A stretch of DNA of 32,000 nt from Candidatus Lokiarchaeum ossiferum. GTDB taxonomy: Archaea > Asgardarchaeota > Lokiarchaeia > Sigyniarchaeales > Promethearchaeaceae. The DNA is taken from the NCBI GenBank assembly GCA_025839675.1, contig CP104013.1, positions 1,980,001 to 2,012,000 of the forward strand, read 5' to 3'. The translations under genes were made by a program, and so were the position numbers. A model generated the notes under the pieces. It was not told the origin of the DNA. It worked only from the letters and a program-made list of their open reading frames with translations, and searched no databases. Positions 2,396 through 31,563 of the stretch are shown here, one piece after another; position 1 is the first letter of the stretch; each line of letters opens with the position of its first letter.

Positions 2396-2760
2396 TTTTT
2401 TTCAACCATTTTTATTTATTTTCAAAAAAAAAAAAAAATAAAAAATAAAGCTAGAGTTTCATAATGATTTATTGAAGTGGTAATTAATCACAGAGAGTGC
2501 ATTTTTTGTGATACTTAATATAATAGAAATCACGAAGAATAGAAATATAAAGATTTTCATAAATATGTAATTTTGAAAGGTAAAAAAGTTCATTTTTTTT
2601 ACACCTTCACACAAATTAAGCGCGCTTATTTCGAGTAAGACCACATTAAAATGAACTTTTCTAAATTTCATGAAGTTGATAAAAAAATTTAATAAATTGA
2701 AAAAACAAACAAAAGCCAAAAAGAGTAATAATTTGAAAAAAAAGTGAAAAATTAAGCCTA

Positions 2761-4101: not shown

Positions 4102-4110
4102 AAAAGTAAT

Positions 4111-4902
4111 TTATTTCAATTGTTGACCGCAAGATTCACAAAAGAGATGATTACTTCTGTTTTTTACACCACAAGCGGGGCAAAAAATAGATTCTTGGCT
4201 ATTATCAGTTGTTTTCACAATTGTAGGTGTGACATAAGAAGGTTCTGAATAGTTTGGTACTGGTCGAATCATTGGCCTAATATGATAGGTATTCTTTTGA
4301 ACTCCATTAACAATTAAATATGTTAATCCCATGATGGGAATTGAGGGGATCCAGAACCATAAGAAATAACCCCCTGTGACCAGATCAACAAAAAGTAGAA
4401 ATATACACACCACAGCAGAATACCACACAGCATGTAAGGGATGGACAGGCAATCCTTTTTCCAGATTGGAAATACGTTTGTATGCAACAAAATGTTCCCC
4501 TATAGCAACACCTAACACAGAAATAGGCCACATGAACCAAGGATATCCAAACCCTGTTACAATATATAAGAATAGAAAGAAGCCCGAAAGAGTTAGAAAT
4601 ACAGAAAAATGAATATAGAAGCCTCGATCCGAAATAGAGTGATATCGCTGTAAAACATATAAAACTGCAGTATGGATTGAAATTCCAATGCCCCAAGATG
4701 CGAGGGGGAATAAATGCCAAGGATAGTAATACCCTGTGAAAATATTAACTAAGAAAAGAAAAGCATTTACCAATAAATATACAACCCAATGAATTTTTAA
4801 CCCTTGTTGTTCATGATAAGGAAGCGCATTCACAAAAGAACTCACAAAATTTGAAGATCCTTGTGTGCGCTTTGAATAATAGTTATTTTCAGTCATAATC
4901 AA
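4111..4902 (-). CDS. Membrane protein with three tandem 2TM-like hairpin domains and a C-terminal zinc ribbon
   Basis: 263-aa ORF. A unit of about 50 aa occurs three times (IHWVVYLLVNAFLFLVNIFTGYYYPWHLFPLASWGIGISIH / IHFSVFLTLSGFFLFLYIVTGFGYPWFMWPISVLGVAIGEH / AVWYSAVVCIFLLFVDLVTGGYFLWFWIPSIPIMGLTY), matching the 2TM-domain pattern. The C-terminus CPACGVKNRSNHLFCESCG is a CxxC...CxxC zinc ribbon. Confidence 0.6.
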   Translation of the reverse strand: MIMTENNYYSKRTQGSSNFVSSFVNALPYHEQQGLKIHWVVYLLVNAFLFLVNIFTGYYYPWHLFPLASWGIGISIHTAVLYVLQRYHSISDRGFYIHFSVFLTLSGFFLFLYIVTGFGYPWFMWPISVLGVAIGEHFVAYKRISNLEKGLPVHPLHAVWYSAVVCIFLLFVDLVTGGYFLWFWIPSIPIMGLTYLIVNGVQKNTYHIRPMIRPVPNYSEPSYVTPTIVKTTDNSQESIFCPACGVKNRSNHLFCESCGQQLK

Positions 4903-5036: not shown

Positions 5037-5636
5037 TTATATGTAAGCATTTTCCTTGAAAATTTGCACAAATAAAGCCACAATTTCATCACTGAGAGAT
5101 TTCATTTTAGGATCCATATTAAAATCATAAAATGGTATATTCGGATCAGCTTCTTTTGCATCTAAATCATATTCATCTTCTTTATACAGCTTATAAGATT
5201 CCAGAAATTGCAAAGAATAAGGACATATCCCGAGCAATATCATTTGTAAATTTGGCACACCTATTTTACACCGATCCACAAAAACTGGTAAGGGCATACT
5301 ATGGCTCGAAATGGGTAAATAATTGAGCATCTGTTTTTCTTCGAACAAACCGACGGATCCGGGAAGATTATCAGTGCCTACAACATCAATTACAATCATC
5401 AAATTTGGTTGGAAATCCAATATTTCAGAAAGTCGTTCTTCGGGAGTAATCCCCCCATTAATAATACAGATTTCAGGAGAAGTAATTTGTTTGTCAAGAT
5501 TGAATGAAATCCATTGCCCCGCCCCATCATCACCCATTCGATTCTCTCCAATCCCTAATATTAAAACTTTTGGATGAGAGTTAAAAAGAGTCTGGAGCTG
5601 TCGTTGAATTTCTGCATACTTTGCCAAATAACCCAT
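5037..5636 (-). CDS. [NiFe] hydrogenase maturation endopeptidase (HycI/HyaD/FrhD family)
   Basis: 199-aa ORF with the family N-terminal signature VLILGIGENRMGDDGAGQWI (GxGNxxxGDDGxG-like) and a later histidine-containing block (LPISSHSMPL). It is divergent from hypE. Confidence 0.8.
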   Translation of the reverse strand: MGYLAKYAEIQRQLQTLFNSHPKVLILGIGENRMGDDGAGQWISFNLDKQITSPEICIINGGITPEERLSEILDFQPNLMIVIDVVGTDNLPGSVGLFEEKQMLNYLPISSHSMPLPVFVDRCKIGVPNLQMILLGICPYSLQFLESYKLYKEDEYDLDAKEADPNIPFYDFNMDPKMKSLSDEIVALFVQIFKENAYI

Positions 5637-5681
5637 GATTTTATTAAAAGCACGACGTTATTAAAAGATGAGGATCAGAAA

Positions 5682-6722
5682 ATGGAAGAAACACCCGAGA
5701 AAAAAATTGTGCAATTGGGTCATGGAGGGGGAGGAATAATGCAAGGCGAACTTATTCGCTTTATTACCGAAAATATCCCCATCAAACAGATTTCAAACGG
5801 TATTGGTGTTGATGCATATGATGACGGTGCAACAATTCCTTTAGAGAATTATGATTCAGAAATCGTTGTCACTGCAGACGGGCATACTGTTGACCCCTTG
5901 ATTTTCCCGGGTGGAGATTTAGGAAAATTATCCGTTTGTGGGACTGTAAATGATATTATTATGATGGGAGCCAAACCTCTTGCTTTAACCTCGATAGTTC
6001 TCATTGAGGAAGGACAAACATTTGAATTTGTTGGTAAAATAATGGATTCATTTAATAAAACAGCAGGAGAAGCAGGAATTGCCATATTAGCGGGTGATAC
6101 AAAAGTTATGCCCCGAGGAACTCTAAAAGAAATGGTAATTAGTACCAGTGGTATCGGAATTAAACCTAAAAATCTTATTATTCGTGATTCTAATTGCCAA
6201 CCCGGAGCAAAAATCATTTTAACAGGCAGTATTGGAGATCATGGCGCAGCCTTAATCGCTCGACGTGAAGGAATTGACTTACAAACAGAATTGAAATCCG
6301 ATGTCGCCATGCTTTTACCTCTGTATAATATTATAAAGGATCAAGAAGGAATATTAGCAATGAAAGATCCCACTCGGGGGGGGCTTGCATCTGCTTTAAA
6401 TGAATGGGCAGAAAAATCAAAGGTTAGTATTTGGATCAAAGAAGAGCAAATCATAATTAAAAAAGAAGTCAAAGCCATTTGCGATATATTGGGATTAGAT
6501 CCCTTAGAAATTGCAAATGAAGGAAAAGCCATTATTTGTGTGGAAGCAACCTTTGCAGACCACCTTTTAGAAAAAATTCAAACCACATCCATCGGTCATG
6601 ATGCACGCATTATTGCAGAAGTGAAAGAAGAAAAATCGGGATTGGTTGTAGTGCAAACACCATTAGGTGGAAAACGAATCGTTGAAAAACCCATGGGTGA
6701 ATTAATTCCACGTATATGTTAA
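5682..6722 (+). CDS. hypE: Hydrogenase maturation protein HypE (carbamoyl dehydratase)
   Basis: AIR-synthase-like fold motifs are present (LGHGGGG, DDGA, GDTKV), and the invariant HypE C-terminus ...IPRIC is immediately followed by the stop. I place the start at ATG 5682 (MEETPEKKIVQLGHGGGG). The tracked ORF start at 5574 would overlap the divergent protease gene and adds a non-protein-like N-terminal extension. Confidence 0.92.
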   Translation: MEETPEKKIVQLGHGGGGIMQGELIRFITENIPIKQISNGIGVDAYDDGATIPLENYDSEIVVTADGHTVDPLIFPGGDLGKLSVCGTVNDIIMMGAKPLALTSIVLIEEGQTFEFVGKIMDSFNKTAGEAGIAILAGDTKVMPRGTLKEMVISTSGIGIKPKNLIIRDSNCQPGAKIILTGSIGDHGAALIARREGIDLQTELKSDVAMLLPLYNIIKDQEGILAMKDPTRGGLASALNEWAEKSKVSIWIKEEQIIIKKEVKAICDILGLDPLEIANEGKAIICVEATFADHLLEKIQTTSIGHDARIIAEVKEEKSGLVVVQTPLGGKRIVEKPMGELIPRIC

Positions 6723-6751: not shown

Positions 6752-9166
6752 ATGAAACAACAACAAATTATCATAACAGGAATTGTTCAAGGTGTTGGGT
6801 TTCGTCCTTTTTTATTTAATTTGTTAGATAGCCACCATTTAACTGGAACGATTAAAAACACCGGTAATTTGGGAGTTACATTGGATCTTCAATCAACCAA
6901 TCCAAAATTCAATTTTGAACGTCTTGCTCTCGAAATTCGCGCAAAAATCCCCGCTATGGCTTTAATTGAAGATATTACAGTTTCATCCCCGAAGGAAGTT
7001 ATGACAAGTGAATTTAAAGAATTAAAAATAATTCCAAGTAATGATGGAATCGGGAAAGGACTAACACTTCCACCCGATATTGCAATGTGCGATGAATGCT
7101 TTAAGGATTTCACAAATCCAGATCAAAAACGCTTTTTTCACTACCCATTTATCGCATGTGCTCAATGTGGTCCCAGATACACTATCATGAAAGCATTACC
7201 GTACGATAGACCTAATAGCACAGTGAAAGATTTCCCCTTTTGTGAAGGATGCGAACAAGATTATTCTGATAGGTCTAATCGCAGGTTTCATGCGCAAACA
7301 TTTAATTGTAATCATTGCGGACCGTTCTATTTTCTTGCTACATTGGAAAGCCCCAATCCAAGGTTTCCCGAACCTAATGCATTGAATGAACTGATAATTG
7401 CCATAAAGGAAGGAAAAATTGTAGCAATTAAAGGAATTGGAGGCGTGAATTTAGTGTGTCGAGCGGATGACGAAAAAGTAATCCAAAAACTTCGTAATCG
7501 CAAACGCGAGCGCAAAAATAAGCCCTTTGCAATTATGGTCGCTGATCAACAAGCAGTTCTTAACTACTGCCACGTGACACCAAAACAAATGGAAATCATT
7601 TCTTCCTTTAGAAGGCCCATTCTCCTTCTACCTAAAAAAGAGAAGTCCTTCCCAGAGAATCTTGCTCCAGGATTGCACAACATCGGAATTCTACTGCCTT
7701 ATATGGGATTACATCACTTACTCTTTCAGAACCTCCCCAATATTCCCTTAGTTTTCACCAGTGGAAATATTTCATCATTGCCAATGGCAGTAGATAATAT
7801 TGAAATATTAACTCATTTGGACGGAATCGCCGATCTCTTTTTTTTACACAATCGTGAGATATTCCAGCGTTGCGATGATAGTGTTATTAGACCTATTTTG
7901 AATAATCGGGCAATCATTCGTCGTTCCCGAGGCTTTATTCCGGAATATATAAAACTGCCCTTCGAACCCAAATGTGATGCGATTATTGCCGTCGGCGCCG
8001 AATTAAACAGTACAGGAGCAATTTCAAGGGGCCCCCGCATATTTCCAACGCAACACATCGGAAATGTGCGCAATTTGGAAACGTATGAATTCCTTGAATC
8101 CGCCCTTCACCATTTACAAACTCTTTTAAAAATTGACGACTGTGAAATTGGATGTATCGCTCGAGATCTTCACCCCAGTTTTCAATCGACCCGTTTAGCT
8201 CAAAAAATTGCAAAAGAACTCCGATCTCAGTCAGATGAACGGCAAATTATTCCGATACAAACCATTCAACATCATCATGCACATTTAGCATCATTGATGG
8301 TGGATCATCAACTTCCCTTAGAAGAAAAAATTCTGGTTCTCACATTAGATGGGGTAGGATATGGAAAGGATCACCAACCCTGGGGGGGAGAAATTCTCTT
8401 AGGAGGTTACTATTCTTTTACTCGTATTGCACATTTAAACCCTATTGTGATGATTGGAGGTGATTTATGTGCGAAAAATCCCGCTAGAATGTTGTTATGT
8501 GAGCTCTATTCTGCAGCAACATCAGATATAGATAGGGAATTAATCGAAGCGCTCATCCAGAAACTCGATTTAGTCTCCTATTTTCCCCATAAAACCACCG
8601 AGTTAAAAGTTTTAAAAACCCAAATCACCAATCTTCCCCAAACAACTACAATATATCCGTTTACATCAAGTCTTGGTCGATTGTTAGATGCGGCAGCGAG
8701 TCTTTTTAACGTCTGTCATCAACGAACATATCGAGGGGAACCCGCAATGCGTTTAGAAGGGTTTGCATGGGGTAGTAAGTATGAAAAACGATTCGACCTT
8801 ACCAAATTTCACACTAAGGAGATTATTTACGGAGAGAAATTGCTCTTTGAATATGCCAAGCTTCTCTTTCAGGCCACCAAATCACACACTCGTGAAACCA
8901 TGAAAAACCTTGCTTACGGTTTCCATTGTGATATTGCTGAACTATTTACAAATATTGCCATCTCAACTGCTAAAACCCACAAGATCCAAAAAATAGGAGT
9001 GTCGGGTGGCGTTGCCTATAATGAAATAATTATGCAAACCATCAAAAAATTAGTCGAAGACGCTAATCTGACCTTTTTACAACATAACCGGATCCCACCT
9101 GGAGATGCAGGTATTAGCGTAGGACAAATCGCTATTGCTGCGGCTCAAACAACAAATGAAACCTAA
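6752..9166 (+). CDS. hypF: Hydrogenase maturation carbamoyltransferase HypF
   Basis: 804 aa. It has an N-terminal acylphosphatase domain (IITGIVQGVGFRPFLFNL), two zinc-finger motifs (CDECFKDF...CAQCGPRYTI and CEGCEQDY...CNHCGPFYF), a YrdC-like segment (KGIGGVNLVC) and a Kae1-like C-terminal domain (HHHAHLAS, DGVGYG). Confidence 0.95.
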   Translation: MKQQQIIITGIVQGVGFRPFLFNLLDSHHLTGTIKNTGNLGVTLDLQSTNPKFNFERLALEIRAKIPAMALIEDITVSSPKEVMTSEFKELKIIPSNDGIGKGLTLPPDIAMCDECFKDFTNPDQKRFFHYPFIACAQCGPRYTIMKALPYDRPNSTVKDFPFCEGCEQDYSDRSNRRFHAQTFNCNHCGPFYFLATLESPNPRFPEPNALNELIIAIKEGKIVAIKGIGGVNLVCRADDEKVIQKLRNRKRERKNKPFAIMVADQQAVLNYCHVTPKQMEIISSFRRPILLLPKKEKSFPENLAPGLHNIGILLPYMGLHHLLFQNLPNIPLVFTSGNISSLPMAVDNIEILTHLDGIADLFFLHNREIFQRCDDSVIRPILNNRAIIRRSRGFIPEYIKLPFEPKCDAIIAVGAELNSTGAISRGPRIFPTQHIGNVRNLETYEFLESALHHLQTLLKIDDCEIGCIARDLHPSFQSTRLAQKIAKELRSQSDERQIIPIQTIQHHHAHLASLMVDHQLPLEEKILVLTLDGVGYGKDHQPWGGEILLGGYYSFTRIAHLNPIVMIGGDLCAKNPARMLLCELYSAATSDIDRELIEALIQKLDLVSYFPHKTTELKVLKTQITNLPQTTTIYPFTSSLGRLLDAAASLFNVCHQRTYRGEPAMRLEGFAWGSKYEKRFDLTKFHTKEIIYGEKLLFEYAKLLFQATKSHTRETMKNLAYGFHCDIAELFTNIAISTAKTHKIQKIGVSGGVAYNEIIMQTIKKLVEDANLTFLQHNRIPPGDAGISVGQIAIAAAQTTNET

Positions 9167-9968: not shown

Positions 9969-10211
9969 TCACACATAATCGGCTTTATCAACCAAGTTTT
10001 TCTCTAACATTTCGCGCCATAAAGTTAAGGTTTCTTGAGCAGCTTTTTCATCAACAATTTCAATTGCCATTCCAGCATGCACAATCGCATATTGTCCGAC
10101 TGTAATACTAGGAACTAAAGCCACAATTATTTTTTTCTGGGTACCATCAAAATCAGCTAAGGCTTGATTGCCTTCGATGGATAAAATTCTTGCAGGAATT
10201 GCTAAGCACAC
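9969..10211 (-). CDS. hypC: Hydrogenase assembly chaperone HypC/HupF
   Basis: The sequence MCLAIPARILSIEG...AIVHAGMAIE matches the HypC family throughout. The family needs Cys directly after the initiator Met. That is obtained only by starting at GTG 10211..10209, which gives 80 aa. The tracked ORF (start 10250) and the ATG at 10217 would bury the Cys at position 15 or 4. Confidence 0.85.
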   Translation of the reverse strand: MCLAIPARILSIEGNQALADFDGTQKKIIVALVPSITVGQYAIVHAGMAIEIVDEKAAQETLTLWREMLEKNLVDKADYV

Positions 10212-10373
10212 ATACATAAAAAAAGAGGGAATATTCAAAAAGATGATCATTATTTTCTAAAATAGCACTTTGCATAGCGCCAACTTTACTAAACAAAGAT
10301 ATCTGATGAGGGAAACAAATAAAGTTCCATATTCGAGGTAAAAAACAATGAAAAAAAAGGATGTTAAACTAGT

Positions 10374-11390
10374 TTAATTAATTTTCCACTCAAAAGGAGT
10401 ATAATATTCAGCCGCAAGTTTAAATAGCACATTTTGCAGCGGATCAGTAGATGAAGTATTAAATTCCTTAATAGGGACTAAACAAAGATTTATTTCCAAG
10501 CCTTGTTCACTTTCAATTAAATTTTTACCATCGATAATTACGGTTGTTTCTCCGTCTGGATTTCGTTGGGAAGAATAAATACCTTTGTCAGTGAATACAC
10601 CTAACCCATGATCTTGCTTTTCATCCCAAAGACAGAGCACTTTATCGTGGGCTACCACATCACATTTCAATGAAGTGGGATAAATAAAGGATACATTGTG
10701 TGAAGTTAATTCTTTTGGTAAACAGGAGTGAATTCGAATGACTGGTTTCTCACCCTTTTGAATATCAATAAAGGTGGTGATTGGGAATTTTGCTCCACTT
10801 TTTGCCATTAACGTCGCTTTAACTTGAATTTTGCCGCCAAAATCACTGGCTTCCATTAAATCATACTTAACATCCTCCATGGAGAGAATTTCGGAATCAA
10901 CTTGAATTTGATGCAATTTAGGATAATAATAAAAAGAATCCCCTGCCCAAATTGATCCATTCCCCAACTCTTCCCCCATGATAATTAATTTTTGGTCTTC
11001 AGGAGTCTCTTCTTCTTCATCTTTATCCATGATAGTCAAAGACCCATCGACTTCAACAATAATACGCAATAAATCATTTTCTAAATAATACTCATTACCA
11101 TCTAACAAACCTTCTTCTGGAAGATGTAAATCAGCAGTGGTATCCCGTGCCTTGATGAAGAATTTTTTTTTTCCACTCGCTGGAATATTCTCTGCCACAA
11201 ATCGAACTTGACACCAGCCATCGACTTCAGGATCCATTTGGGATAATAACTCACAATTTGCATCATCATAGACTTGTAATCCTGAAATATGCAAAGTATT
11301 TTCAAAGGAGACTGACACCAACGAAGTTCTGTCCCATGGATGAGGATTTGAAATAGTTATCGGAATCATATTAATTATAGAATTATTCAT
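10374..11390 (-). CDS. Hypothetical beta-sandwich protein resembling the C-terminal domains of GH38 alpha-mannosidases, with no catalytic domain
   Basis: 338-aa ORF. The N-terminus ITISNPHPWDRTSLVSVSF...VYDDANCELLSQ...VRFVAENIPASGKKKFFI, followed by YYLENDLLRIIVEVDGSLTIMDKD, resembles the remembered GH38 C-terminal pattern (NPLswer..v.v / leNe.l.v.id..G.l.si.dk). No N-terminal GH38 catalytic region is present. Confidence 0.35.
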   Translation of the reverse strand: MNNSIINMIPITISNPHPWDRTSLVSVSFENTLHISGLQVYDDANCELLSQMDPEVDGWCQVRFVAENIPASGKKKFFIKARDTTADLHLPEEGLLDGNEYYLENDLLRIIVEVDGSLTIMDKDEEEETPEDQKLIIMGEELGNGSIWAGDSFYYYPKLHQIQVDSEILSMEDVKYDLMEASDFGGKIQVKATLMAKSGAKFPITTFIDIQKGEKPVIRIHSCLPKELTSHNVSFIYPTSLKCDVVAHDKVLCLWDEKQDHGLGVFTDKGIYSSQRNPDGETTVIIDGKNLIESEQGLEINLCLVPIKEFNTSSTDPLQNVLFKLAAEYYTPFEWKIN

Positions 11391-11540
11391 ACTTGTTTAA
11401 ATATCGCATAGTTCTTAAAAAAATTCTTCAGCATATGTATGAAACTTACTGATAGTTCACTATCCAAAAATGTTAATTTTCATCGAATATCCATTCATAT
11501 CCAAAACCTTAATTTTCTTCCCGCCAATATTTTTACAGAG

Positions 11541-11963
11541 ATGACACCCAAGGCGAATACAAAAAAATATACAATTTTACTAGAACGATTAGATGGGTGC
11601 TGTGACAATGGGCAAGCAAGTTATGACGAATTGGTTAAATTTCGTGAACAATTCTTAGCGGATGAGAAAAAGCAACAAATTATTGCGTTTTTAGAAGCTA
11701 TCGGAAATCAAGAACGATATTTAATTATGGAAAGTTTAAGGGACCAAGCCCGATGTGTGTGTGAATTAGAAGCTCTTTTACAAAAATCCCAACCCACAAT
11801 ATCGCACCACTTGCGCGTATTAGAAAAACAAGGGCTGATTTTAGGAATGAAAAAAGGCAAGTTTACTTTCTACTCTTTAGTGAGACGACCATATGAAAAA
11901 ATGTCGAATGAATTTTCAAATTGGGTAAAGCAAGTATCTGCATGGTTTGGAGAAAATCTTTAA
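11541..11963 (+). CDS. ArsR/SmtB-family metalloregulatory transcription factor
   Basis: Winged-HTH core ERYLIMESLRDQARCVCELEALLQKSQPTISHHLRVLEKQGLILGMKKGKFTFYSL, including the CVC metal-site motif and the SHHL recognition helix. I prefer the start at ATG 11541. The tracked ORF start at 11439 adds 34 low-complexity residues and would leave only 48 bp for two divergent promoters. Confidence 0.8.
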   Translation: MTPKANTKKYTILLERLDGCCDNGQASYDELVKFREQFLADEKKQQIIAFLEAIGNQERYLIMESLRDQARCVCELEALLQKSQPTISHHLRVLEKQGLILGMKKGKFTFYSLVRRPYEKMSNEFSNWVKQVSAWFGENL

Positions 11964-13515: not shown

Positions 13516-13708
13516 AAAAAAAGAGTGCTTCTCAACTTTTCTAAATCGCTCTAAAATATTTTTTGACTAATCTAACAAAATGATCATCCTAAAATCAACA
13601 ATTTTGAGTCATCTTAGATTCTTTTTACAATTTTCATTGGTAATCAATTTTGAATATCTTTGATCTCGAACGATTTATTAAGAAAAATGAAATACGTTAG
13701 AACAGAAT

Positions 13709-13715
13709 AAAAAAA
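13709..13715 (-). terminator. Oligo-U tract, a probable archaeal terminator of the hydrogenase operon
   Basis: A7 on the plus strand gives U7 on the minus-strand transcript. It lies about 12 nt after the last GC-rich hairpin of the vhuU 3' UTR. Archaeal RNAP terminates at oligo-T tracts. Confidence 0.4.
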
Positions 13716-13742
13716 GATGAAAAAGGTGAGCATCCCCGGACA

Positions 13743-13794
13743 GGGGTCTCCAGTTTCTCCAGAGTTTGTGAGAAACGTTCATCGAACTCAACCC
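13743..13794 (-). promoter_or_regulatory. Candidate SECIS element (kink-turn / eukaryote-like type) in the vhuU 3' UTR
   Basis: The minus-strand RNA is ...GGGUUGAGUUCG-AUGA-ACG-UUUCUC-ACAAACUCUG-GAGAAA-CUG-GA-GACCCC. UUUCUC (13775..13770) pairs perfectly with GAGAAA (13759..13754), plus a closing G-C. The 10-nt loop is A-rich. The 5' AUGA (13782..13779) faces a 3' GA (13750..13749), allowing tandem sheared G.A/A.G pairs. GGGU (13794..13791) can pair with ACCC (13747..13744) as a lower helix. This was hand-folded only, and a competing GAG-A-CCCC-UGUCC-GGGG-AUG-CUC hairpin exists at 13728..13750. Confidence 0.4.
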
Positions 13795-13801
13795 ATGAAG
13801 T

Positions 13802-13951
13802 TTAACCGCAGTCAACTTCTAACTTGCGAACAATGCGCTCAGTACCATCAGGTTCCACAACGGTTATATGAGCAGCACACGATAATCAGCAATCATAACA
13901 GCGGATTACCATTTCGAGCAAGTTTAAGATACCTTCATTTACTTCTACCAT
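13802..13951 (-). CDS. vhuU: VhuU-like selenopeptide: a separately encoded C-terminal Ni-ligand segment of the [NiFeSe] hydrogenase large subunit, with in-frame UGA (Sec) at 13888..13886
   Basis: Hand translation of the minus strand gives ATG(13951) MVEVNEGILNLLEMVIRCYDC-TGA-LSCAAHITVVEPDGTERIVRKLEVDCG-TAA(13804..13802). With TGA read as Sec this gives ...VIRCYDCULSCAAH, the conserved ...VIRxYDP(C/U)xxCxxH terminus that the upstream large subunit lacks. A 21-aa post-His tail follows, typical of the endopeptidase substrate. The gene is missing from the ORF track because the TGA splits it into pieces shorter than 60 aa. Confidence 0.85.
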
Positions 13952-13977
13952 ATTAGGTCACATTTTAGGTTGTTCGA

Positions 13978-15315
13978 TTATTTTATCCAAGGTTCAGGTA
14001 ATTTAAGTTTTGATAAGGCATCTTGCTCAAAGATTTGTTGAGCGGCATGCTTTACACTTTTCTCAATTCCTGCAATATTATGGTTGGTTGCAACAATGAT
14101 ATTTAATTTACGACAAATCCCATCGGCATCGGTAGCCATATCATAAATTAAATTACCCCGAGGCGCATCAACCATTCCCACACCACGTCCTTCCTTAGGT
14201 TTAACATCAAGAGTTTTGATATCAGTACTTAGGATTTGAGGATCTTTGAGAAGAGTTACAATATTTTCAAAGGCTTCAACAGTTTCGATAATTCGAGCCC
14301 AATGGTAAGCGAAAGTATTGTGAATTACGCCACAATCCGCACCACAGACTTTTTGATACATTTCTTTTCGAGCAGCTTCTGCCAATGGAGTGGACATTTC
14401 ATCACAAGCATTCAACATAGCAAGGGAATTGGTTCGATAAATTCCATCGGGATATCCTGCGGGTTTGAAGTAAGTGTGGCTTGCATAATTATGATCAACC
14501 ACTTTCTCTCCAATTGCTTCAAGATAGTCTGCTGGTTTATAAATGTGCTTTTTACCTTCAGGAGATACGAAAATGATATCACCATCATAAATATCGTGCA
14601 CAATCTTGCCATTGACTTGTTTACCCACACCACAATAATAAGTTTCGGTGGCTGCAACATTTGCAATAACATCCCAATAATCAGATACCACTTTCTTTGC
14701 AATATCTACGGTTTTCTTCACAAATTCTAATTGTTCTGGAATTTGAGCGATATTGGCATCACGAACTGCAGATGACAAGGGATTTCGCATCCCACCGACA
14801 ATTCCTGCAATAGGACCAACAGATTTACCACCAATAGCAGTACAAATGTTTTGGCCAAAATCCATCATTTTTAATGCCATTGCCCCAACTTCAGGCATAT
14901 CCTTGATGATATTCACAACATTACGTTTTCCAGCAGGAGCAAACGGACCATAAATAAAATCAGGAGCAGCCAATGCAAAGAAGTGCAATAAATGAGAACT
15001 GTATTGCTTTGCATTAATAAACAACTGACGCAATTTATAAGCGGCTTCTGGAATTTCTACCCCCCATGCAGCTTCCACAGATTTAGTAGCTGCTAAATGG
15101 TGGGGAATTGGACAAATTCCACAAATTCGATTCGTGATTCGAGGTACATGCTCTGCATATCGCCCTTCACACAATTTTTCAAAGAATCTGGTAGTGGTGA
15201 TGTTGAATTGGACATCCTTTACGGTTTTCCCATCTTCACCCAATACCAGTCGTAATCCACCATGTCCTTCTAATCGAGTGACAGGTTCTATTTCATATAC
15301 TTTATCTGGAGACAT
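13978..15315 (-). CDS. vhuA: [NiFe(Se)] hydrogenase large subunit, group 3 Mvh/Vhu-like, C-terminally truncated (split form)
   Basis: 445 aa. The N-terminal Ni-ligand motifs are present (TRLEGHG and RICGICPIPHH, i.e. RxCGxCxxxH), and the body is hydrogenase-like. It ends ...NHNIAGIEKSVKHAAQQIFEQDALSKLKLPEPWIK with no DPCxxCxxH motif. An AAGGTGA Shine-Dalgarno lies upstream, and its start is 1 nt from the hdrB stop. Confidence 0.9.
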   Translation of the reverse strand: MSPDKVYEIEPVTRLEGHGGLRLVLGEDGKTVKDVQFNITTTRFFEKLCEGRYAEHVPRITNRICGICPIPHHLAATKSVEAAWGVEIPEAAYKLRQLFINAKQYSSHLLHFFALAAPDFIYGPFAPAGKRNVVNIIKDMPEVGAMALKMMDFGQNICTAIGGKSVGPIAGIVGGMRNPLSSAVRDANIAQIPEQLEFVKKTVDIAKKVVSDYWDVIANVAATETYYCGVGKQVNGKIVHDIYDGDIIFVSPEGKKHIYKPADYLEAIGEKVVDHNYASHTYFKPAGYPDGIYRTNSLAMLNACDEMSTPLAEAARKEMYQKVCGADCGVIHNTFAYHWARIIETVEAFENIVTLLKDPQILSTDIKTLDVKPKEGRGVGMVDAPRGNLIYDMATDADGICRKLNIIVATNHNIAGIEKSVKHAAQQIFEQDALSKLKLPEPWIK

Positions 15316-15316
15316 T

Positions 15317-16204
15317 TTAAAGATTCACCTTAGCTAATGCTTCTTTCCCTTTATTACGGTGGAAGTTCAATCCAAGAGATTTTGGATCTTTACCCATGGC
15401 TAATGCCAATAATTCGGTAATATAGAAGATTGGAAATTTATATTCTTCCCCTTCTGCAGCCAGGGCTTTTAATTTCGGTTGTTCACTATCAAATTGCTGG
15501 AAACATGAAGGACAGTTCACAGTCAAACAATCTGCATCTGCTCGTTTGGCTCCATCAATTTTTGATTTTAACATGATGTTGGCAGTGTTCACATCAGAAT
15601 TTCGCACTACATTCCCGCAACACAAGTTTTCTTCTGCAAAGGAAACAGCAGTAGCACCAGTAACTTCTACAAGTTGATGCAAATACTTCAAATCCATCGG
15701 ATCCTCTTCAACCTTTAAAATATGTGAAGGTCGAGCATAATGACATCCTGGATGACAAGCCACTTTCAACCCGGTTAAGGGATGAGTGATTTTTGCTTTA
15801 ATCGCTTCCAAACCAACTTCTTCTACTAATACACGCACGAAGTGCTTTATATTAATTGTTCCATTGTATTCTTTACCAACTTTGGCAAGGATTTCATTTA
15901 CGCCTTTTTTCAAGACAGCATCATGTTTCATTTCATGATCCGCCACAATCATCGATTGAGCACATCCATTACATAAAGACATAATGTCTTTATTTTCTTT
16001 TTCAGCTACTGAGATGTTTCGAGCAGCTAAAGAAGCCCATGTTTTTTGATCCACAAAGCGCAATCCAACAGGATTAGGACAACATGAAAATTCTCCAGGA
16101 GAAGTTACTAAGCCTAATTCATCGAACACTACTTTTGCGGAAGCTTCTAAGAACGGTAGACGATTGGTCATTAAACAACCAGGAAATAATTTGTATTCTG
16201 CCAT
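15317..16204 (-). CDS. hdrB: Heterodisulfide reductase subunit B-like protein (two CCG domains)
   Basis: 295 aa starting MAEYKLFPGCLMTNRLPFLEASAKVVFDELG. Cysteine-rich CCG-type motifs are present (FSCCPNP, LCNGC, ACHPGC, LCCGNVV, NCPSCFQQFD). Its start overlaps the hdrC stop by 1 nt. Confidence 0.85.
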   Translation of the reverse strand: MAEYKLFPGCLMTNRLPFLEASAKVVFDELGLVTSPGEFSCCPNPVGLRFVDQKTWASLAARNISVAEKENKDIMSLCNGCAQSMIVADHEMKHDAVLKKGVNEILAKVGKEYNGTINIKHFVRVLVEEVGLEAIKAKITHPLTGLKVACHPGCHYARPSHILKVEEDPMDLKYLHQLVEVTGATAVSFAEENLCCGNVVRNSDVNTANIMLKSKIDGAKRADADCLTVNCPSCFQQFDSEQPKLKALAAEGEEYKFPIFYITELLALAMGKDPKSLGLNFHRNKGKEALAKVNL

Positions 16205-16728
16205 TACGCGGAACCCTCCTCTTTTTCTTTAATTGTATTTTCAATACCGGTCGCAGCCATAATTGCTTTCACTTCATCAACGGGAATCGCTGGAGGCAAT
16301 CCAATACCCAACTTTTCACGTCGTTTATTTATTGCGGGTTGCACAGGAATTGCCATCCCATTATCGCGAATAGTTCGACACGATTGAGGATAGAATTCAG
16401 GTGTTGCTCCTGCAGCACAAGCTGCGTTTTTTAATACACAAATAATCTCCGTAATTGGAATTTCGGCAGGGCACATTTCATCACATGTTTCACATGCGGT
16501 GCAGCCCCATAATGCAAATGGGTCTCGTCCCACTGCAGCAAATAGTGCTTCCTTATACCCTAAGGCAGAGAAAAGCACCAAATCACGTGGATTATAGCGT
16601 GAACCATGTTGTTGACTAATGGGACATACGTCATTACAAACTCCACACTGCATACAGTATGATAATTTGTCTCCACCCATCATCAAATCCAAAACGGCTC
16701 GTTTTAAGTTTAAATCTGCTTTTACCAT
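16204..16728 (-). CDS. hdrC: Heterodisulfide reductase subunit C-like protein (2x[4Fe-4S] ferredoxin domain)
   Basis: 174 aa with two ferredoxin-type cluster motifs, CMQCGVCNDVCP and CTACETCDEMCP. A strong AAGGAGG Shine-Dalgarno overlaps the end of the upstream small-subunit gene. Confidence 0.85.
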   Translation of the reverse strand: MVKADLNLKRAVLDLMMGGDKLSYCMQCGVCNDVCPISQQHGSRYNPRDLVLFSALGYKEALFAAVGRDPFALWGCTACETCDEMCPAEIPITEIICVLKNAACAAGATPEFYPQSCRTIRDNGMAIPVQPAINKRREKLGIGLPPAIPVDEVKAIMAATGIENTIKEKEEGSA

Positions 16729-16740
16729 TTTTATTCCTCC

Positions 16741-18093
16741 TTATTTTTCCTCCAATTTATGCCCAAGGGTGCTAGTAGGCACACAAAATCGGGCAAATAA
16801 TCCCGCAGGATCAGAGAAGAATTTCTTAATATTTTCAGGGGAATCCCGACAAATTGAAGGGAACAAGCTCATAGCTTTGGCTGCGTAATCATCAACATTT
16901 ACTGCAGGACCATAACAACCTAAACAGGGAGAATTGGCGCGCGGACAGGTTGCTCCACAACCACCTTTGGTGATCGGCCCCATACACACATACCCTTGAA
17001 TTAAGAGACATTTATCTTGATCTGGGAAACCTTCATAATCACGTTTATATCGGACTACTTCTTTATTTTCCACATTCCGTTCACAAGCAGAACACACAGT
17101 CTTGGCAGAATCATCATAATCAGGATTATCTTTTAAATTGGCCATAGAAGCACCAATAATATGATTCACCATCTCAGGATAACCTTCGGCGGTGTAATCT
17201 ACAATTTCTTTATTGTTAAAAGTTTTCATCTTGATTGACTCTGGATCTAATTTCACGGCACGAATTGGATCTGCTTTACCAACCAAATAACCTAAAGGTA
17301 CAGATGAAAGAGTCATCATTAAAGCAGTGACAGTTTGACTTACTTCGTCTTTGGTCAATGGTTTTTCAGTTAGTTTTGCAAACAATTTATTGGCATTTCC
17401 TTCGTGGATTGCTTTGGTTAATCCGAATTCACCACTCACGGGATAACCTGCAGCAAGTTTTCCAATTGGATCTCCAGCAGCAGTAATAGGGCCATAACAG
17501 AGCGTTCCAGCATCCAATAAACAGTTTTCTAATGGGCAAACATCACACATACTTTTACTTGCATCAACCTTAGTATCTGGAGCACCTAATACATGAGCGA
17601 TTAGTCCAACAATGTTTCCTGGTTTTGGTGGACATCCCGGTAAATCAACATCAACTTTCACTTGAGTGTGGAGATCTGGAATAGCATCCATAAACTTAGG
17701 AACATGTTGATCAGGCACTTTGGCACCTGCATCAACGAATTCAGTATCTAAAAATTTTCGTTGGGTTAATTCTTCGATCGTATAGAGGTTAGCCAATCCA
17801 GGACATCCCCCTAATACAGCACAAGACCCCATTGCGACAATTATTTTGCATTTTTGACGCATTAATTTTGCATTCGCAAGATCACCTTCGGTTCGAATAA
17901 ACCCTTCTAAAAACCCAACGTCGACTGACCCATCTTCATAGCCTTCTAAATCTTTAATTTTGAAATCTACTACGGCTGGCCAATAGACAAACTCGAGTTC
18001 CGGTAATACATGCAAAAGCGTTAAATGCGAGTCAAGTAGGGATTGATGGCAACCCCAACAACTTGAAAGTTGCATAAAGCTACATTTTACCAT
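16741..18093 (-). CDS. vhuG: [NiFe] hydrogenase small subunit, group 3 MvhG/VhuG-like (unusually long)
   Basis: 450 aa. The proximal-cluster cysteines are in the expected contexts (MQLSSCWGCHQSLLD, AMGSCAVLGGCPG, DLPGCPPKPG). The C-terminal half is Cys-rich (CDVCPLENC...C, CSAC, C..C...GGCGATCP...PCLGC). There is no Tat or signal peptide, so the protein is cytoplasmic. A GAGGT Shine-Dalgarno lies upstream. Confidence 0.88.
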   Translation of the reverse strand: MVKCSFMQLSSCWGCHQSLLDSHLTLLHVLPELEFVYWPAVVDFKIKDLEGYEDGSVDVGFLEGFIRTEGDLANAKLMRQKCKIIVAMGSCAVLGGCPGLANLYTIEELTQRKFLDTEFVDAGAKVPDQHVPKFMDAIPDLHTQVKVDVDLPGCPPKPGNIVGLIAHVLGAPDTKVDASKSMCDVCPLENCLLDAGTLCYGPITAAGDPIGKLAAGYPVSGEFGLTKAIHEGNANKLFAKLTEKPLTKDEVSQTVTALMMTLSSVPLGYLVGKADPIRAVKLDPESIKMKTFNNKEIVDYTAEGYPEMVNHIIGASMANLKDNPDYDDSAKTVCSACERNVENKEVVRYKRDYEGFPDQDKCLLIQGYVCMGPITKGGCGATCPRANSPCLGCYGPAVNVDDYAAKAMSLFPSICRDSPENIKKFFSDPAGLFARFCVPTSTLGHKLEEK

Positions 18094-19045
18094 ACATTTT
18101 TACCTCTTACCAATTATGATTTAAATAGATAGTCAAATAACCCCATTAGTATCAGAAATTCGAATACATATCAAATCTCCAATTTTCATATCTAATTTAA
18201 ATAATTTTATTAGTTAAACCTCACAAAATCCCATAATTAGATTTTCTAAGGCAATACTATGATATAGTGTAGGACAAGACTCCTTTTAAGATTAATTTCG
18301 AGCTTTTTTTGAATAAAAAAGAAAAAACAATTGATCCAAATAGCGAATTCCATGCAGAAAAAAAAAAATACAATGCTAAATTTCGATAAAATCACTGAGA
18401 ATCATGAATAAATGAGGTAATTTTAATATTTTCTATAGATTTTATCTGAATGAGTATTCAAATAAACGCTAATTCGCTGTTACAATAGATTGAAAATAAA
18501 AATTGAAAATAAGTCCAGATATATTCAAAAAACATTATTCAATCTTCAAAGCTCGGAAACTTAAGTAAGCATAATAATTAGTTTTTTAATTTTTCAAAAA
18601 CCCCACCGCTATAAGTAATCATTTAAAGAAGATTCTACGAATTCTTCGATACACCCAACTTTATATCCGAGAAGTGTATTTATTATCGGAAGATATAATT
18701 CCCACATACTTTTAGAAATTAGATCTTTAAATAGATCCAGATATTCAGTTTTAATGCAGTTTCTTATTTCTATTTTAATAAAATTCTAATTGGGTTGCGA
18801 CATCCCTAATAACTTGCTTTCTAAAAATTCTCTAATTTCTTACAATAATTGAAAGGATGTTTTACATATTTTTTAAAAACAACTTGAGCCGAATGATTTG
18901 ATAAGCATCAGAAAAAGAGAATGGAATGAATTTACCAAAATATTTTTATAGATACAATTCAGTCACATATAATACATGCGTGTGATTGTATCGATTTAAT
19001 TCAGTTTCTCAATTCACACCATGTTGAATAGTATGGGGAAATTTT

Positions 19046-21238
19046 ATGAGAAGAAATAAAAAAATATTATTTTTGTTGGTTGTTGTGGGACTATCGCCAT
19101 TTTTGGTATTAAATGCAATTTCAACTGCTAGCGCGAATCCAGGGGAGGTTTCCAAAACGTTCACTTTCAATGCAGATTTCGAAGAAGGTGAAATGGTTGG
19201 AGTAGAATGTGAATCGATTCCAGATCAATTACAGTTATCCGAAGAAACGTCAACATTTTCCTATTTATGGATAGCCAATGCAGGAGAGGATACATTATCA
19301 AAATGGGATACCGAAACGAATACCGAAGTTGCTCGTTACAATACATGGTTTAGCACATATCCAGACCATGATGCATGGACAGGAGCATCACCGTCTCGCA
19401 CATGTGTGGATGGTGAGGGAAATTGTTACGTTGCCAACAGGCATTTTGATGGTAGACCCACGGATGTCATGAAAGTATTGGTCGATGAATGGATAGATCG
19501 TAACGGAAACGGGATTTTGGATACTTCTTTTGATGCAAATTTTAACGGAGAAATCACTCCCGATGAAATGCAACCTATGTTAGATGGAAATGGCAATGGA
19601 ATTATCGAGGATTCTGAAATTCAAGATGAACGAATAGCTTGGATAGTGAGAGTTGGAAATCCAAATGGTATTGGCAGATCTTTATCAATTGATCCTGAGG
19701 GAAATATCTGGGTAGGATTATATTCTTCCCGACAATATTATAAATTAGATTCCATTTCAGGAGACATTCTAGGAGGTCCATATACTACATTAGGTAGCAC
19801 ACCCTATGGATCATTAGTCGATAAATATGGTATTTTATGGAGCGCATCGCTTTCTAACAGACTATTCTGGTTAAATACATCGGATCCATCGCAGTGTGGA
19901 ATGTTCACAGAACCATATTGTAGTACATATGGGATGGCATTGAACTATGATATATTTGGAAACACAATAGTTTATTTAGCAGATTCATCAACCGGTAAGG
20001 GATATATTCAGTTTAATTCGAGTTCAAAAATATTTTCTATCGGACCAGTAGTAAAACCAAATATGCGAGTGACTGGGATAGCTACCGATTCCTATGGAAA
20101 TATAATTATCGCAAGTTATACGCAAGGATATCCAATCAAATATTCCCCTGAAGGAATTGAACTCTGGAGGAATTACTCTACACCAGTAACAGAAAGTCGA
20201 GGTGTGATCGTTGATGGAGAAAATAATATATGGTTGTGCCACAGAGCAATCAGTAAACTTTCTAAACACTTAGGAGAGAACGGTAACTATGTAGGATCAT
20301 ATGAAACTGGTCTATTTCCATACACGTACAGTGACGCAACAGGACTTTCGTACCAACAAAGTATTAGCCAAAATGGATATTGGAGAATTATTTTTGATTC
20401 TGAAGAAGATAATTCTAAATGGGGAAGAGTATCTTGGACGGATTATATCCCAGTAGGGGGAAATCTTGAAGTTCGGGTAAGAAGTTCCAATGATGGATTA
20501 AGTTGGACAGGTTGGGAATACGTATCGAATAATATCTTCTTTGATTATATTCCAGATGGACGATATTTGCAGATCGATGTCAAATTTGAAATTGGAGATG
20601 AGGATCTCTCTCCAATCCTCTATGATTTAACAGTTCAAATCGGAGATCCGAAATCATTGAAAATGGAAGCTAAAAATATTTTGGAGGATCTTCACACAGG
20701 AATCCGTTGCATAGATGTAAACACACGAAATATAATTCATCAAATAGAATTAAGCTTATGTGGTAGATTATGGAAAGATGAGTCTCATTTAGATTTCAAG
20801 CACGGAGACCAAGTATTTGTCCATGAACGAAATGCAGTTAATCACATGGAAAAGATGATTGCCAAATATCAACGAATTATTGATGCCTATGAGGAACCAT
20901 TACCTACGATCATGTTGGAGAAGTCACTTTCAAAAATTGACCCAACAATACTAATTCCTCTTTTAGAAAATGTCATCATCACCTATGAAAAAGTGTGTAA
21001 ATATTTGACTATGGCAGATATGATTTTAGCTCAAATTGCCTCTGAAGAATCGGCAGCATTGCCAATTACTTCAGGAAAATGGGAAACCAGAGTGGAAATG
21101 TATTTAGAAAAGAGTACAAATTCACTGTTCACTGGAAATGAACAGTTTGAGCAAGGAGAATGGGAAAAAGCTGTAAGTGAATATCGCGATGCATGGCGGT
21201 ATGCAATGGATGTTGAATTCTGGGCATTGAAGAAATAA
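19046..21238 (+). CDS. Secreted or surface multi-domain protein: signal peptide, about six-bladed beta-propeller with inserted EF-hand/dockerin-like Ca2+ loops, beta-sandwich, and alpha-helical C-terminal domain
   Basis: 730 aa. The N-terminus MRRNKKILFLLVVVGLSPFLVLNAISTASA-NPGE is a signal peptide with an AxA site. Blade-like motifs recur (GNCYVANRH, GNIWVGLYS, GILWSASLS, NTIVYLADS, GNIIIASYT, NNIWLCHRA). EF-hand-type 12-residue loops are present (DRNGNGILDTSF, DANFNGEITPDE, DGNGNGIIEDSE). A beta-sandwich-like segment follows (WGRVSWTDY...VRVRSSNDGLSWTGWEY...GRYLQIDVKFE...SPILYDLTVQIG). Confidence 0.6.
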   Translation: MRRNKKILFLLVVVGLSPFLVLNAISTASANPGEVSKTFTFNADFEEGEMVGVECESIPDQLQLSEETSTFSYLWIANAGEDTLSKWDTETNTEVARYNTWFSTYPDHDAWTGASPSRTCVDGEGNCYVANRHFDGRPTDVMKVLVDEWIDRNGNGILDTSFDANFNGEITPDEMQPMLDGNGNGIIEDSEIQDERIAWIVRVGNPNGIGRSLSIDPEGNIWVGLYSSRQYYKLDSISGDILGGPYTTLGSTPYGSLVDKYGILWSASLSNRLFWLNTSDPSQCGMFTEPYCSTYGMALNYDIFGNTIVYLADSSTGKGYIQFNSSSKIFSIGPVVKPNMRVTGIATDSYGNIIIASYTQGYPIKYSPEGIELWRNYSTPVTESRGVIVDGENNIWLCHRAISKLSKHLGENGNYVGSYETGLFPYTYSDATGLSYQQSISQNGYWRIIFDSEEDNSKWGRVSWTDYIPVGGNLEVRVRSSNDGLSWTGWEYVSNNIFFDYIPDGRYLQIDVKFEIGDEDLSPILYDLTVQIGDPKSLKMEAKNILEDLHTGIRCIDVNTRNIIHQIELSLCGRLWKDESHLDFKHGDQVFVHERNAVNHMEKMIAKYQRIIDAYEEPLPTIMLEKSLSKIDPTILIPLLENVIITYEKVCKYLTMADMILAQIASEESAALPITSGKWETRVEMYLEKSTNSLFTGNEQFEQGEWEKAVSEYRDAWRYAMDVEFWALKK

Positions 21239-30837: not shown

Positions 30838-31161
30838 TTATTTAACTTGAAGATGAAATGCATCATCAAGGGGATTTTTTACTTTCCCTGAAATATATAA
30901 GAGCCCATTTTCATACTTTCCACTTACCGAATCTATATCAATTTCCCATGGAAAATGTCCATGAAGCGAATATTGCGCTTGATCTCGGATGGCTTCCAAA
31001 TCAAATAGAGTTGGGAGAACTCGAAATTTCACCTTTGATTTATCCACACCGGGAAGATGAACTTCAAGATTCCATTCTTTCTTTACATTTTCGTAATTAA
31101 AATGGCTAGTGGGGGTAATTTGATATTTAATTTCTGGCTTATCAGTTGATTTTTCACTCAT
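30838..31161 (-). CDS. Small heat-shock protein, Hsp20/alpha-crystallin family (minimal form)
   Basis: 107 aa with ACD signatures (WNLEVHLPGVDKSKVKFRV and YENGLLYISGKV). An IXI-like C-terminal motif is present (LQV). A GGAGG Shine-Dalgarno lies upstream. Confidence 0.85.
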   Translation of the reverse strand: MSEKSTDKPEIKYQITPTSHFNYENVKKEWNLEVHLPGVDKSKVKFRVLPTLFDLEAIRDQAQYSLHGHFPWEIDIDSVSGKYENGLLYISGKVKNPLDDAFHLQVK

Positions 31162-31172
31162 CGTTATTCCTC

Positions 31173-31532: not shown

Positions 31533-31563
31533 TTTTTTTCATCTCCAATAATTTAAAAAATTA

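Follow-up and report, generated by a model that had tools for sequence, protein, structure and literature searches.

What does a hydrogenase reduce when its operon carries genes for HdrC and HdrB, yet none for MvhD or HdrA? The question is raised by a five-gene operon of Candidatus Lokiarchaeum ossiferum, which we have analyzed in a 32-kb stretch of the genome (GenBank assembly GCA_025839675.1, contig CP104013.1, positions 1,980,001 to 2,012,000 of the forward strand). This whole stretch is termed the window, and all coordinates for it are window positions. From the scores of profile and PDB matches we assign the hydrogenase as a cytoplasmic Vhu-type, group 3c-like [NiFeSe] enzyme, encoded together with HdrC- and HdrB-like subunits. 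The genes, the selenopeptide and its selenocysteine insertion sequence (SECIS) are already present in published genomes and papers. What is apparently new, in that no description was found in open-access text, is a conserved package of five genes without MvhD or HdrA, one of which encodes a small subunit with a duplicated Fe–S domain. We tentatively favour the view, at slightly less than an even chance, that the five subunits constitute a stand-alone module that is a reversible, non-bifurcating H2:disulfide oxidoreductase.

The operon and its signals are listed in the order of transcription (aa, amino acids).

18094–18135, minus strand: putative promoter and ribosome-binding region, with TATA-like TATTTAAAT and GAGG 9 nt before the ATG
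16741–18093, minus strand: small subunit G (VhuG/MvhG-like), 450 aa, from Pfam, NCBIfam and PDB alignment
17095–17547, minus strand: insertion within G (residues ~183–333), a partial duplicate of the C-terminal Fe–S domain and then a helical region
16204–16728, minus strand: HdrC-like ferredoxin subunit, 174 aa, from Pfam, NCBIfam and alignment with methanogen HdrC
15317–16204, minus strand: HdrB-like catalytic subunit, 295 aa, from Pfam, NCBIfam and alignment with methanogen HdrB
13978–15315, minus strand: large subunit A, VhuA-type, 445 aa, ending before the C-terminal Ni-binding motif
13802–13951, minus strand: VhuU-type selenopeptide U, 49 aa, open only if the TGA at 13886–13888 is decoded
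13749–13782, minus strand: Loki-type SECIS, comprising AUGA, a nine-position stem, a 10-nt A-rich loop ending in G, the return stem and GA
13701–13724, minus strand: probable archaeal terminator, a T-rich run CTTTTTCATCTTTTTTTATT after the SECIS

The genes are closely packed on the minus strand, with the junctions that the first-pass annotation of this DNA had described. G and HdrC are separated by a 12-nt gap containing GGAGG, the HdrC and HdrB genes overlap by 1 nt at 16204, a single nucleotide (15316) lies between HdrB and A, and 26 nt (13952–13977) between A and U. Upstream of G is an AT-rich spacer of 950 bp (18094–19045; 27% GC) without any open reading frame (ORF) longer than 53 aa. Because this spacer is non-coding and ends at a divergently transcribed gene on the plus strand, the operon starts at 18093; the possibility raised earlier that mvhD or hdrA might lie beyond the spacer in the same transcription unit is thereby removed.

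Neither gene was found elsewhere at the locus, as had been claimed. Pfam scans of all window ORFs of at least 90 aa returned no MvhD and no HdrA, and tblastn with Asgard HdrA gave no match in the window. The absence of MvhD is the less rigorous of the two, since it rests on Pfam scans, ORF lists and the clustering of neighbouring genes only. We considered whether either gene might be concealed in the upstream spacer or interrupted by a selenocysteine (Sec) codon. This was rejected, given the short ORFs of the spacer and the negative HdrA search; the other non-coding gaps in the window likewise hold short ORFs only.

Subunits and metal centres

All five products were recognized by profile searches, with scores below the NCBIfam equivalog cut-off in every case. 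G matches Pfam Oxidored_q6 and NCBIfam VhuG (239 bits, cut-off 450), HdrC matches Pfam Fer4_8 and TIGR03290 (78 bits, cut-off 160), and HdrB has two CCG domains and matches TIGR03288 (264 bits, cut-off 345). A matches NCBIfam VhuA at 428 bits (cut-off 800), the scores against FrhA and sulfhydrogenase being 141 and 139, and U matches VhuU (NF041786) at 56 bits (cut-off 70; E = 1.9e-15). Thus they are divergent relatives of the methanogen proteins, not orthologues or equivalogs. The best sequence matches for all five are nevertheless the methanogen Vhu/Mvh–HdrABC complexes, for which PDB 9SFI from Methanococcus maripaludis and 5ODC from Methanothermococcus thermolithotrophicus served as references. 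In the PDB the large subunit is matched by VhuA (9sfi_g, 380 bits, E = 1.7e-112) and MvhA (5odc_F, 293 bits, E = 2.9e-86); hydrogenases of group 3d give E values of 1e-65 to 5e-86, those of group 3b ~1e-31 and those of group 1 1e-14 to 1e-24.

The predicted metal-binding sites are those of the methanogen enzymes, with three cluster motifs in the small subunit, two clusters in HdrC and two CCG-type, non-cubane clusters in HdrB. G retains all 12 canonical cysteines for three [4Fe–4S] clusters, which are C12, C15, C91 and C154 for the proximal cluster, and C334, C337, C362, C370, C379, C383, C390 and C393 for the medial and distal clusters. The protein starts directly at the proximal-cluster motif MVKCSFMQLSSCWGCH and therefore has no twin-arginine translocation (Tat) signal; the operon has no cytochrome b gene, and the earlier impression that all its parts are cytoplasmic holds. 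HdrC has two CxxCxxCxxxCP motifs (C25/C28/C31/C35 and C76/C79/C82/C86), whose eight cysteines are 100% conserved in 78 operon-linked copies, and it aligns with methanogen HdrC (8rvu_c) with E = 3e-20. The ten cysteines of HdrB expected to bind two non-cubane [4Fe–4S] clusters (C10/C41/C42/C78/C81 and C154/C195/C196/C231/C234) are 100% conserved in 77 such copies. HdrB aligns end-to-end with its methanogen counterpart (8rvu_b, E = 6e-63), with an identity of ~40% judged by eye. Two CCG motifs in HdrB, accompanied by an HdrC with two [4Fe–4S] motifs, is the combination that characterizes the HdrABC type. Given the full-length alignment of HdrB and the invariant cysteines of both proteins, the HdrBC module is predicted to be catalytically competent.

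As in the methanogen Vhu complex, the large subunit is split into VhuA and a VhuU that contains Sec. A provides the N-terminal Ni motif RICGICPIPH (C65, C68), which like the C-terminal one is conserved family-wide. The C-terminal Ni ligands are supplied by U, in the motif RCYD-C-U-LSC-AAH, with Sec (TGA at 13886–13888) at the first Cys of the motif. All the VhuU ORFs recovered, those of 82 related loci and that of the window, contain an in-frame TGA. The Ni motif (13886–13891, codons 21–22) reads D-C-U-xx-C-xx-H, where the usual form is D-P-C/U-xx-C-xx-H and that of the methanogen enzymes is D-P-U/C. Cys directly precedes Sec in all family members but one, which has Phe (L080); the two residues might form a Cys–Sec redox pair. 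The mature VhuU chain in the PDB (9sfi_M) terminates where the residue following His28 of U aligns, so that the 21-residue tail of U is probably cleaved by a HycI-type protease encoded in the window.

VhuU has been listed as a Lokiarchaeota selenoprotein, and the Loki SECIS described as AUGA, a 9-bp stem, a 10–11-nt A-rich loop ending in G, the return stem and GA/AA (Mariotti et al. 2016). An element of this eukaryote-like type, a further difference from the methanogen systems, begins 20 nt past the stop codon of U (13782–13749), with seven of its nine stem positions paired. It was found 3′ of the VhuU gene in all but three of 83 sequences scanned, and was weak and displaced in two more. When seven clade members are compared, 93.7% of positions in the stem are paired and five of the nine pairs have changed on both sides. 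The covariation score was reached by none of 500 shuffles, and sliding one arm reduced pairing to 34–64%. The helix is therefore supported by covariation; the thermodynamic fold of this region alone is not significant (z = 0.06), and Rfam returned no family match for the element. Together with the Pfam and NCBIfam matches, the in-frame TGA and the SECIS confirm the gene identities and the selenium content proposed in the first-pass annotation.

At 450 aa the small subunit is ~150 aa longer than MvhG/VhuG (288–308 aa). Its N-terminal 188 and C-terminal 120 residues align with MvhG (5odc_E) and VhuG (9sfi_I), and ~140 residues lie between. The insertion begins with a second CxxC...C...C motif (C183, C186, C191 and C199) that is present in at least 90% of the family, as judged from a cysteine map of 78 members. 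In 87% of members a further four-cysteine motif completes a duplicate of the two-cluster domain. This second motif has been lost in the clade to which the window belongs, the corresponding residues here being D208, K212, V219 and E222, and in some Helarchaeota-like members both of the additional motifs are lost. The duplication is visible when G is compared with itself by BLASTP (50% identity over 36 aa, E = 9e-11). The four retained cysteines suggest one extra [4Fe–4S] cluster in the window protein; judged by cysteine motifs, the number of [4Fe–4S] clusters in G may be three, four or five according to lineage.

An AlphaFold2 model of G has a predicted local distance difference test (pLDDT) score of 82–95 over most of the insertion. 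Foldseek with this model returned only known small subunits, MvhG being the best, and the insertion had no match of its own. Among the best 120 homologues of G listed, lengths range from 310 to 491 aa with all but five above 440 aa, and all those that are named come from Asgard archaea or unclassified metagenome samples. A search of 1.8 billion representative proteins with the insertion alone gave hardly any homologues beyond the family. By these comparisons the insertion is family-specific and derived from a duplicated Fe–S domain, and we found no description of it in open-access text. We also asked if the insertion could be a fused MvhD, and rejected the idea: it has no Pfam FlpD domain, and it duplicates the Fe–S motif of G itself. 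The insertion adjoins the distal-type motif, in the region with which MvhD makes contact in methanogens (5ODC), and could change that interface.

The operon in Asgard relatives

How widespread is this arrangement? The survey took one genome per species and gave 80 loci; 84 were mapped with the five window proteins, and 88 when four further loci (L085–L088) were included. For all the operon proteins the closest relatives belong to Asgard archaea that carry the names Promethearchaeota, Promethearchaeia or Lokiarchaeota. All five genes are together in 78 of the 84 loci. The remaining six loci end early, and have only G-A, G-A-U or G-A-HdrC-HdrB; in L085–L088 all five genes are present. The commonest order among the 78 is G-A-U-HdrC-HdrB (60 loci), followed by the G-HdrC-HdrB-A-U of the window (10 loci) and G-A-HdrC-HdrB-U (eight loci). 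Hence hdrC and hdrB lie between hydrogenase structural genes in two of the three orders, between those of G and A in one and between those of A and U in the other.

In a neighbour-joining tree based on the large subunit, loci with the order of the window form a single clade, to which the cultured strain Promethearchaeum syntrophicum MK-D1 (L009) and 'Ca. Harpocratesius' (L006) belong. Two contigs that are more distant (L085 and L087) share this order. So does a complete Lokiarchaeum-like genome of 6.27 Mb (CP163304.1, L086), which has all five genes, with identities to the window proteins of 98% for G, 100% for HdrC, 99% for HdrB, 95% for A and 98% for U. The corresponding values for MK-D1 are 75, 79, 80, 82 and 86%. 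The recurrence of the arrangement in 10 related loci (A identity 63–86%) and in the near-identical genome shows that it is not a matter of chance.

The MK-D1 operon is orthologous and is listed gene by gene under 'NiFe hydrogenase' in Supplementary Table 4 of Imachi 2020 (PMC7015854), as MvhA (DSAG12_03951), HdrB (03952), HdrC (03953) and MvhG (03954), with reads per kilobase per million (RPKM) values of 346, 322, 371 and 296, respectively. That paper identifies it as the only hydrogenase of MK-D1 and labels it an electron-confurcating MvhADG-HdrABC, without remarking on either the lack of the D and A subunits or the length of the small subunit. The order had been called unusual in the first-pass annotation, and this is not borne out: it is typical of the Promethearchaeum/Lokiarchaeum clade rather than exceptional. 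To the question left by that annotation, whether the synteny is common and already described, the answer is that it is common and on record, but has not been discussed as such. Nor did we find in the open-access literature any explicit description of an Asgard hydrogenase–HdrBC module without MvhD and HdrA.

Searches by tblastn with Asgard HdrA and by motif, over flanks of up to 8–10 kb, found no HdrA in 87 of the 88 loci. No MvhD-like cluster occurs among the recurrent neighbours of these loci, MvhD itself not having been searched for by sequence. The sole HdrA near any locus is in L087, where a distinct hdrC-hdrB-hdrA cluster follows the operon on the same strand, 2.3 kb downstream. L087 (7183–16494) is a divergent contig that has the order of the window, with a small subunit that retains all eight extra cysteines. 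The idea that this gene order is tied to loss of the second extra cluster was rejected on account of L087.

In three cases a single metagenome-assembled genome holds two paralogous copies of the operon (L021/L045, L034/L067 and L043/L078). Where the order is readable, vhuU follows the large-subunit gene in one copy and hdrB in the other; in the last pair L078 ends after vhuU.

Possible modes of electron transfer

Within the window, then, there is an operon that differs from the methanogen Vhu/Mvh–HdrABC systems in having hdrC and hdrB inside the hydrogenase operon and a small subunit that is ~150 aa longer, with neither MvhD/VhuD nor HdrA in the operon or its surroundings. How might such an enzyme work? 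Since they are co-transcribed, the hydrogenase most probably assembles with HdrC and HdrB. In the stand-alone module that we lean towards, the five products G, HdrC, HdrB, A and U would be made from one transcript and form one complex. Electrons from H2 would pass from the Ni–Fe–Se site through the proximal, medial and distal clusters of G, possibly by way of the extra cluster in the insertion, and then through the two clusters of HdrC to the active site of HdrB. A disulfide or persulfide would be reduced there; in reverse, a dithiol would be oxidized and H2 released. The insertion of G would take the place of MvhD/HdrA for docking or as part of the wire, and the separate HdrABC-type complexes of the cell would draw on the same thiol/disulfide carrier. 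Because the host is not a methanogen, the substrate is unlikely to be CoM-S-S-CoB, and might be a sulfur-carrier protein; in papers on Asgard archaea it appears as 'an unidentified heterodisulfide'.

Several observations favour this. The five genes are linked, with hdrC and hdrB between hydrogenase structural genes in two of the three orders, HdrA is absent from all but one of the 88 loci, and the extension of G is specific to the family. Where HdrA clusters are found they have their own HdrC and HdrB genes, as in L087 and in the annotated HdrA/MvhD clusters of MK-D1 (Imachi 2020, PMC7015854). We also count in its favour the similar RPKM values of the four operon genes in MK-D1 (296–371). A further point is provided by a formate counterpart. 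In three relatives a second hdrC-hdrB pair is in an operon with the alpha subunit of a molybdopterin formate dehydrogenase (~689 aa), beside a FocA-type formate channel and without HdrA (L032, 539–3983; L049, 819–4263; L074, 2049–5504).

There are precedents for such wiring. CCG modules are connected directly to a partner enzyme in thiol:fumarate reductase TfrAB, HdrDE, Isp2 and DsrK, TfrB and HdrD being fusions as opposed to the separate HdrC and HdrB of the window. The group 4 'HdrB-interacting' hydrogenases Ehd, Ehe and Drh, of which Drh has been proposed to be a direct H2:heterodisulfide reductase (PMC9723716), resemble the window operon, as do TfrAB and HdrDE, in placing a CCG-cluster module beside another redox enzyme without HdrA. 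These hydrogenases differ in being of group 4 and mostly membrane-bound, whereas the enzyme of the window is soluble, group 3c-like and NiFeSe.

A substantial possibility, although one that we would also put below an even chance, is that this is the canonical enzyme after all. The five products would then combine with HdrA and MvhD encoded elsewhere as a bifurcating (in syntrophs confurcating) MvhADG–HdrABC-type complex that couples H2, ferredoxin and a thiol/disulfide pair, and the gene order would be a lineage-specific rearrangement and nothing else. Much of what supports this weighs directly against a stand-alone module. The closest characterized homologues of all five proteins, and the best structural ones, are subunits of the bifurcating complexes (5ODC, 9SFI and 8RVU), and in methanogens too the units of the Mvh/Vhu–HdrABC complex are encoded at separate loci. 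The contact between G and HdrC is a predicted one. The number of extra cysteines in the insertion varies between lineages (8, 4 or ~0), so that the clusters that they may bind cannot be an obligatory wire. Thiol-driven formation of H2 requires a low-potential couple and very low H2. A partner is moreover available: HdrA-VhuD tandem genes are conserved in Lokiarchaeota genomes (Mariotti et al. 2016), and the cluster DSAG12_03717-26 of MK-D1 has more HdrA and MvhD genes than HdrBC pairs (PMC7015854). Among Sec-utilizing Asgard genomes the frequencies of the selenoproteins are similar, at 68% for the VhuU type, 58% for HdrA and 57% for the MvhD type. Lastly, the sole hydrogenase of MK-D1, read by Imachi 2020 as confurcating, must dispose of the electrons of ferredoxin as H2 (PMC7015854), and confurcation is the simpler way of re-oxidizing ferredoxin. 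On the other side are the near-universal lack of linkage to HdrA, the absence of an MvhD-like cluster from the recurrent neighbours (with the limit noted above), the HdrB and HdrC genes that accompany the listed HdrA genes, and an insertion in G that could change the MvhD interface.

If the stand-alone module is the correct reading, it might extend to a new class of enzyme, which we regard as possible but rather doubtful. The sole hydrogenase of the cultured Asgard archaea would then be a self-contained five-subunit [NiFeSe] hydrogenase–HdrBC without MvhD or HdrA, wired through the duplicated Fe–S domain and interconverting H2 with a thiol/disulfide carrier (possibly a persulfide of the TusA/DsrE type), with a parallel FdhA–HdrBC for formate.

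The nature of the carrier leads to a reading that is compatible with either wiring, but that we consider improbable. HdrB would act on a persulfide, trisulfide or disulfide carried by relay proteins of the TusA/DsrE type, and the enzyme would connect H2 with sulfane-sulfur or thiosulfate metabolism in the cytoplasm. Of the 63 loci with sufficient sequence upstream, 14 have a TusA-YeeE-DsrE-DsrF-DsrH cluster immediately before the gene for the small subunit. Both major gene-order clades include such loci, the cluster being on the same strand in MK-D1, L008 and L075 and divergent in the others. The sHdr systems of sulfur oxidizers are always accompanied by TusA/DsrE sulfur transferases (PMC11094781), and the substrate named in the Asgard papers leaves room for such a carrier. 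The parallel is partial: a minority of the relatives of the window have HdrB/HdrC-like proteins in genetic linkage with TusA and the DsrE family, but sHdr has HdrA and lipoate-binding proteins and no hydrogenase (PMC11094781). The linkage is absent in 78% of evaluable loci, HdrB is ~40% identical (by eye) to methanogen HdrB over its full length, and a neighbourhood common to related genomes may reflect common descent. Because the window has no sulfur-relay genes, in contrast to MK-D1 with its cluster directly upstream on the same strand, the linkage is a lead and not a finding on the window.

In MK-D1 (L009) the sulfur-relay cluster at 2482–4822 comprises TusA, a YeeE-type transporter, DsrE, a DsrE/F-like protein and DsrH. 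It was also seen in L008, L011, L015, L023, L035, L038, L039, L050, L056, L067, L069, L075, L082 and L083.

The group 1e (Isp-type) hydrogenases, with the operon hynS-isp1-isp2-hynL, are periplasm-facing, membrane-associated enzymes with HdrD-like subunits encoded between the structural genes; they are exported by Tat, and have a cytochrome b (Isp1) and an HdrD-type fusion (Isp2). Membership of this group has virtually no chance of being correct and is refuted, for while the resemblance of layout drawn in the first-pass annotation stands, with electron-transfer genes including one for a CCG-domain protein between the small- and large-subunit genes, the enzyme of the window has no Tat signal and no cytochrome b, its HdrC and HdrB are separate rather than an HdrD fusion, and its catalytic subunit is group 3-like and not group 1.

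Genomic surroundings and significance

The window also contains accessory genes for hydrogenase maturation.

5037–5636, minus strand: HycI-type hydrogenase maturation endopeptidase (PF01750)
5574–6722, plus strand: hypE
6752–9166, plus strand: hypF
9969–10250, minus strand: hypC
10374–11390, minus strand: ORF of 338 aa with no Pfam match, directly upstream of hypC, a position conserved in the clade

As called, the HycI-type and hypE ORFs overlap head to head by 63 nt (5574–5636), so the start codon of one of them is probably further in. The 338-aa ORF is 38% identical to L001 12953–13936 and is also present in L086; in other clades a 264-aa ORF occupies the interval from hdrB to hypC, and BLASTP found no homology between the two. 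The operon is followed after 1.8 kb by the gene for an ArsR/SmtB-family regulator with a CVC motif (11439–11963, plus strand), likewise found in L086; in bacteria sulfane-sulfur-responsive repressors of the ArsR type control sHdr genes (PMC11094781). On the other side, a protein of 730 aa with weak beta-propeller matches is encoded at 19046–21238 (plus strand), between the upstream spacer and the gene for an 892-aa membrane protein. The near-identical CP163304.1 (L086) lacks it at this position, which points to a recent insertion or deletion. Three small tandem genes (107, 119 and 113 aa) with weak HSP20/CS-domain matches are found at 30838–31905 on the minus strand. Rfam and tRNA scans of the window found nothing.

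Promethearchaeum syntrophicum was the first Asgard archaeon to be cultured, and syntrophic hydrogen transfer by Asgard cells is central to current models of the origin of eukaryotes. Since the orthologous operon is its only hydrogenase, the mechanism of this enzyme bears on syntrophy models of eukaryogenesis. Reconstructions have labelled it an electron-confurcating MvhADG–HdrABC, whereas the genes that are conserved encode a hydrogenase with HdrBC and a longer Fe–S small subunit, without MvhD or HdrA. Should this package function on its own, the energetics of H2 metabolism in Asgard archaea would need redrawing, in terms of the carrier that feeds the enzyme, its potential and the involvement of ferredoxin; and if the new class is real, syntrophic release of H2 and formate would occur via a thiol/disulfide pool and not by confurcation at the hydrogenase. 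If instead HdrA–MvhD made elsewhere docks with it, the enzyme would be a modular version of the complex already known. In both cases the question has become concrete, and the cultured strains allow it to be tested.

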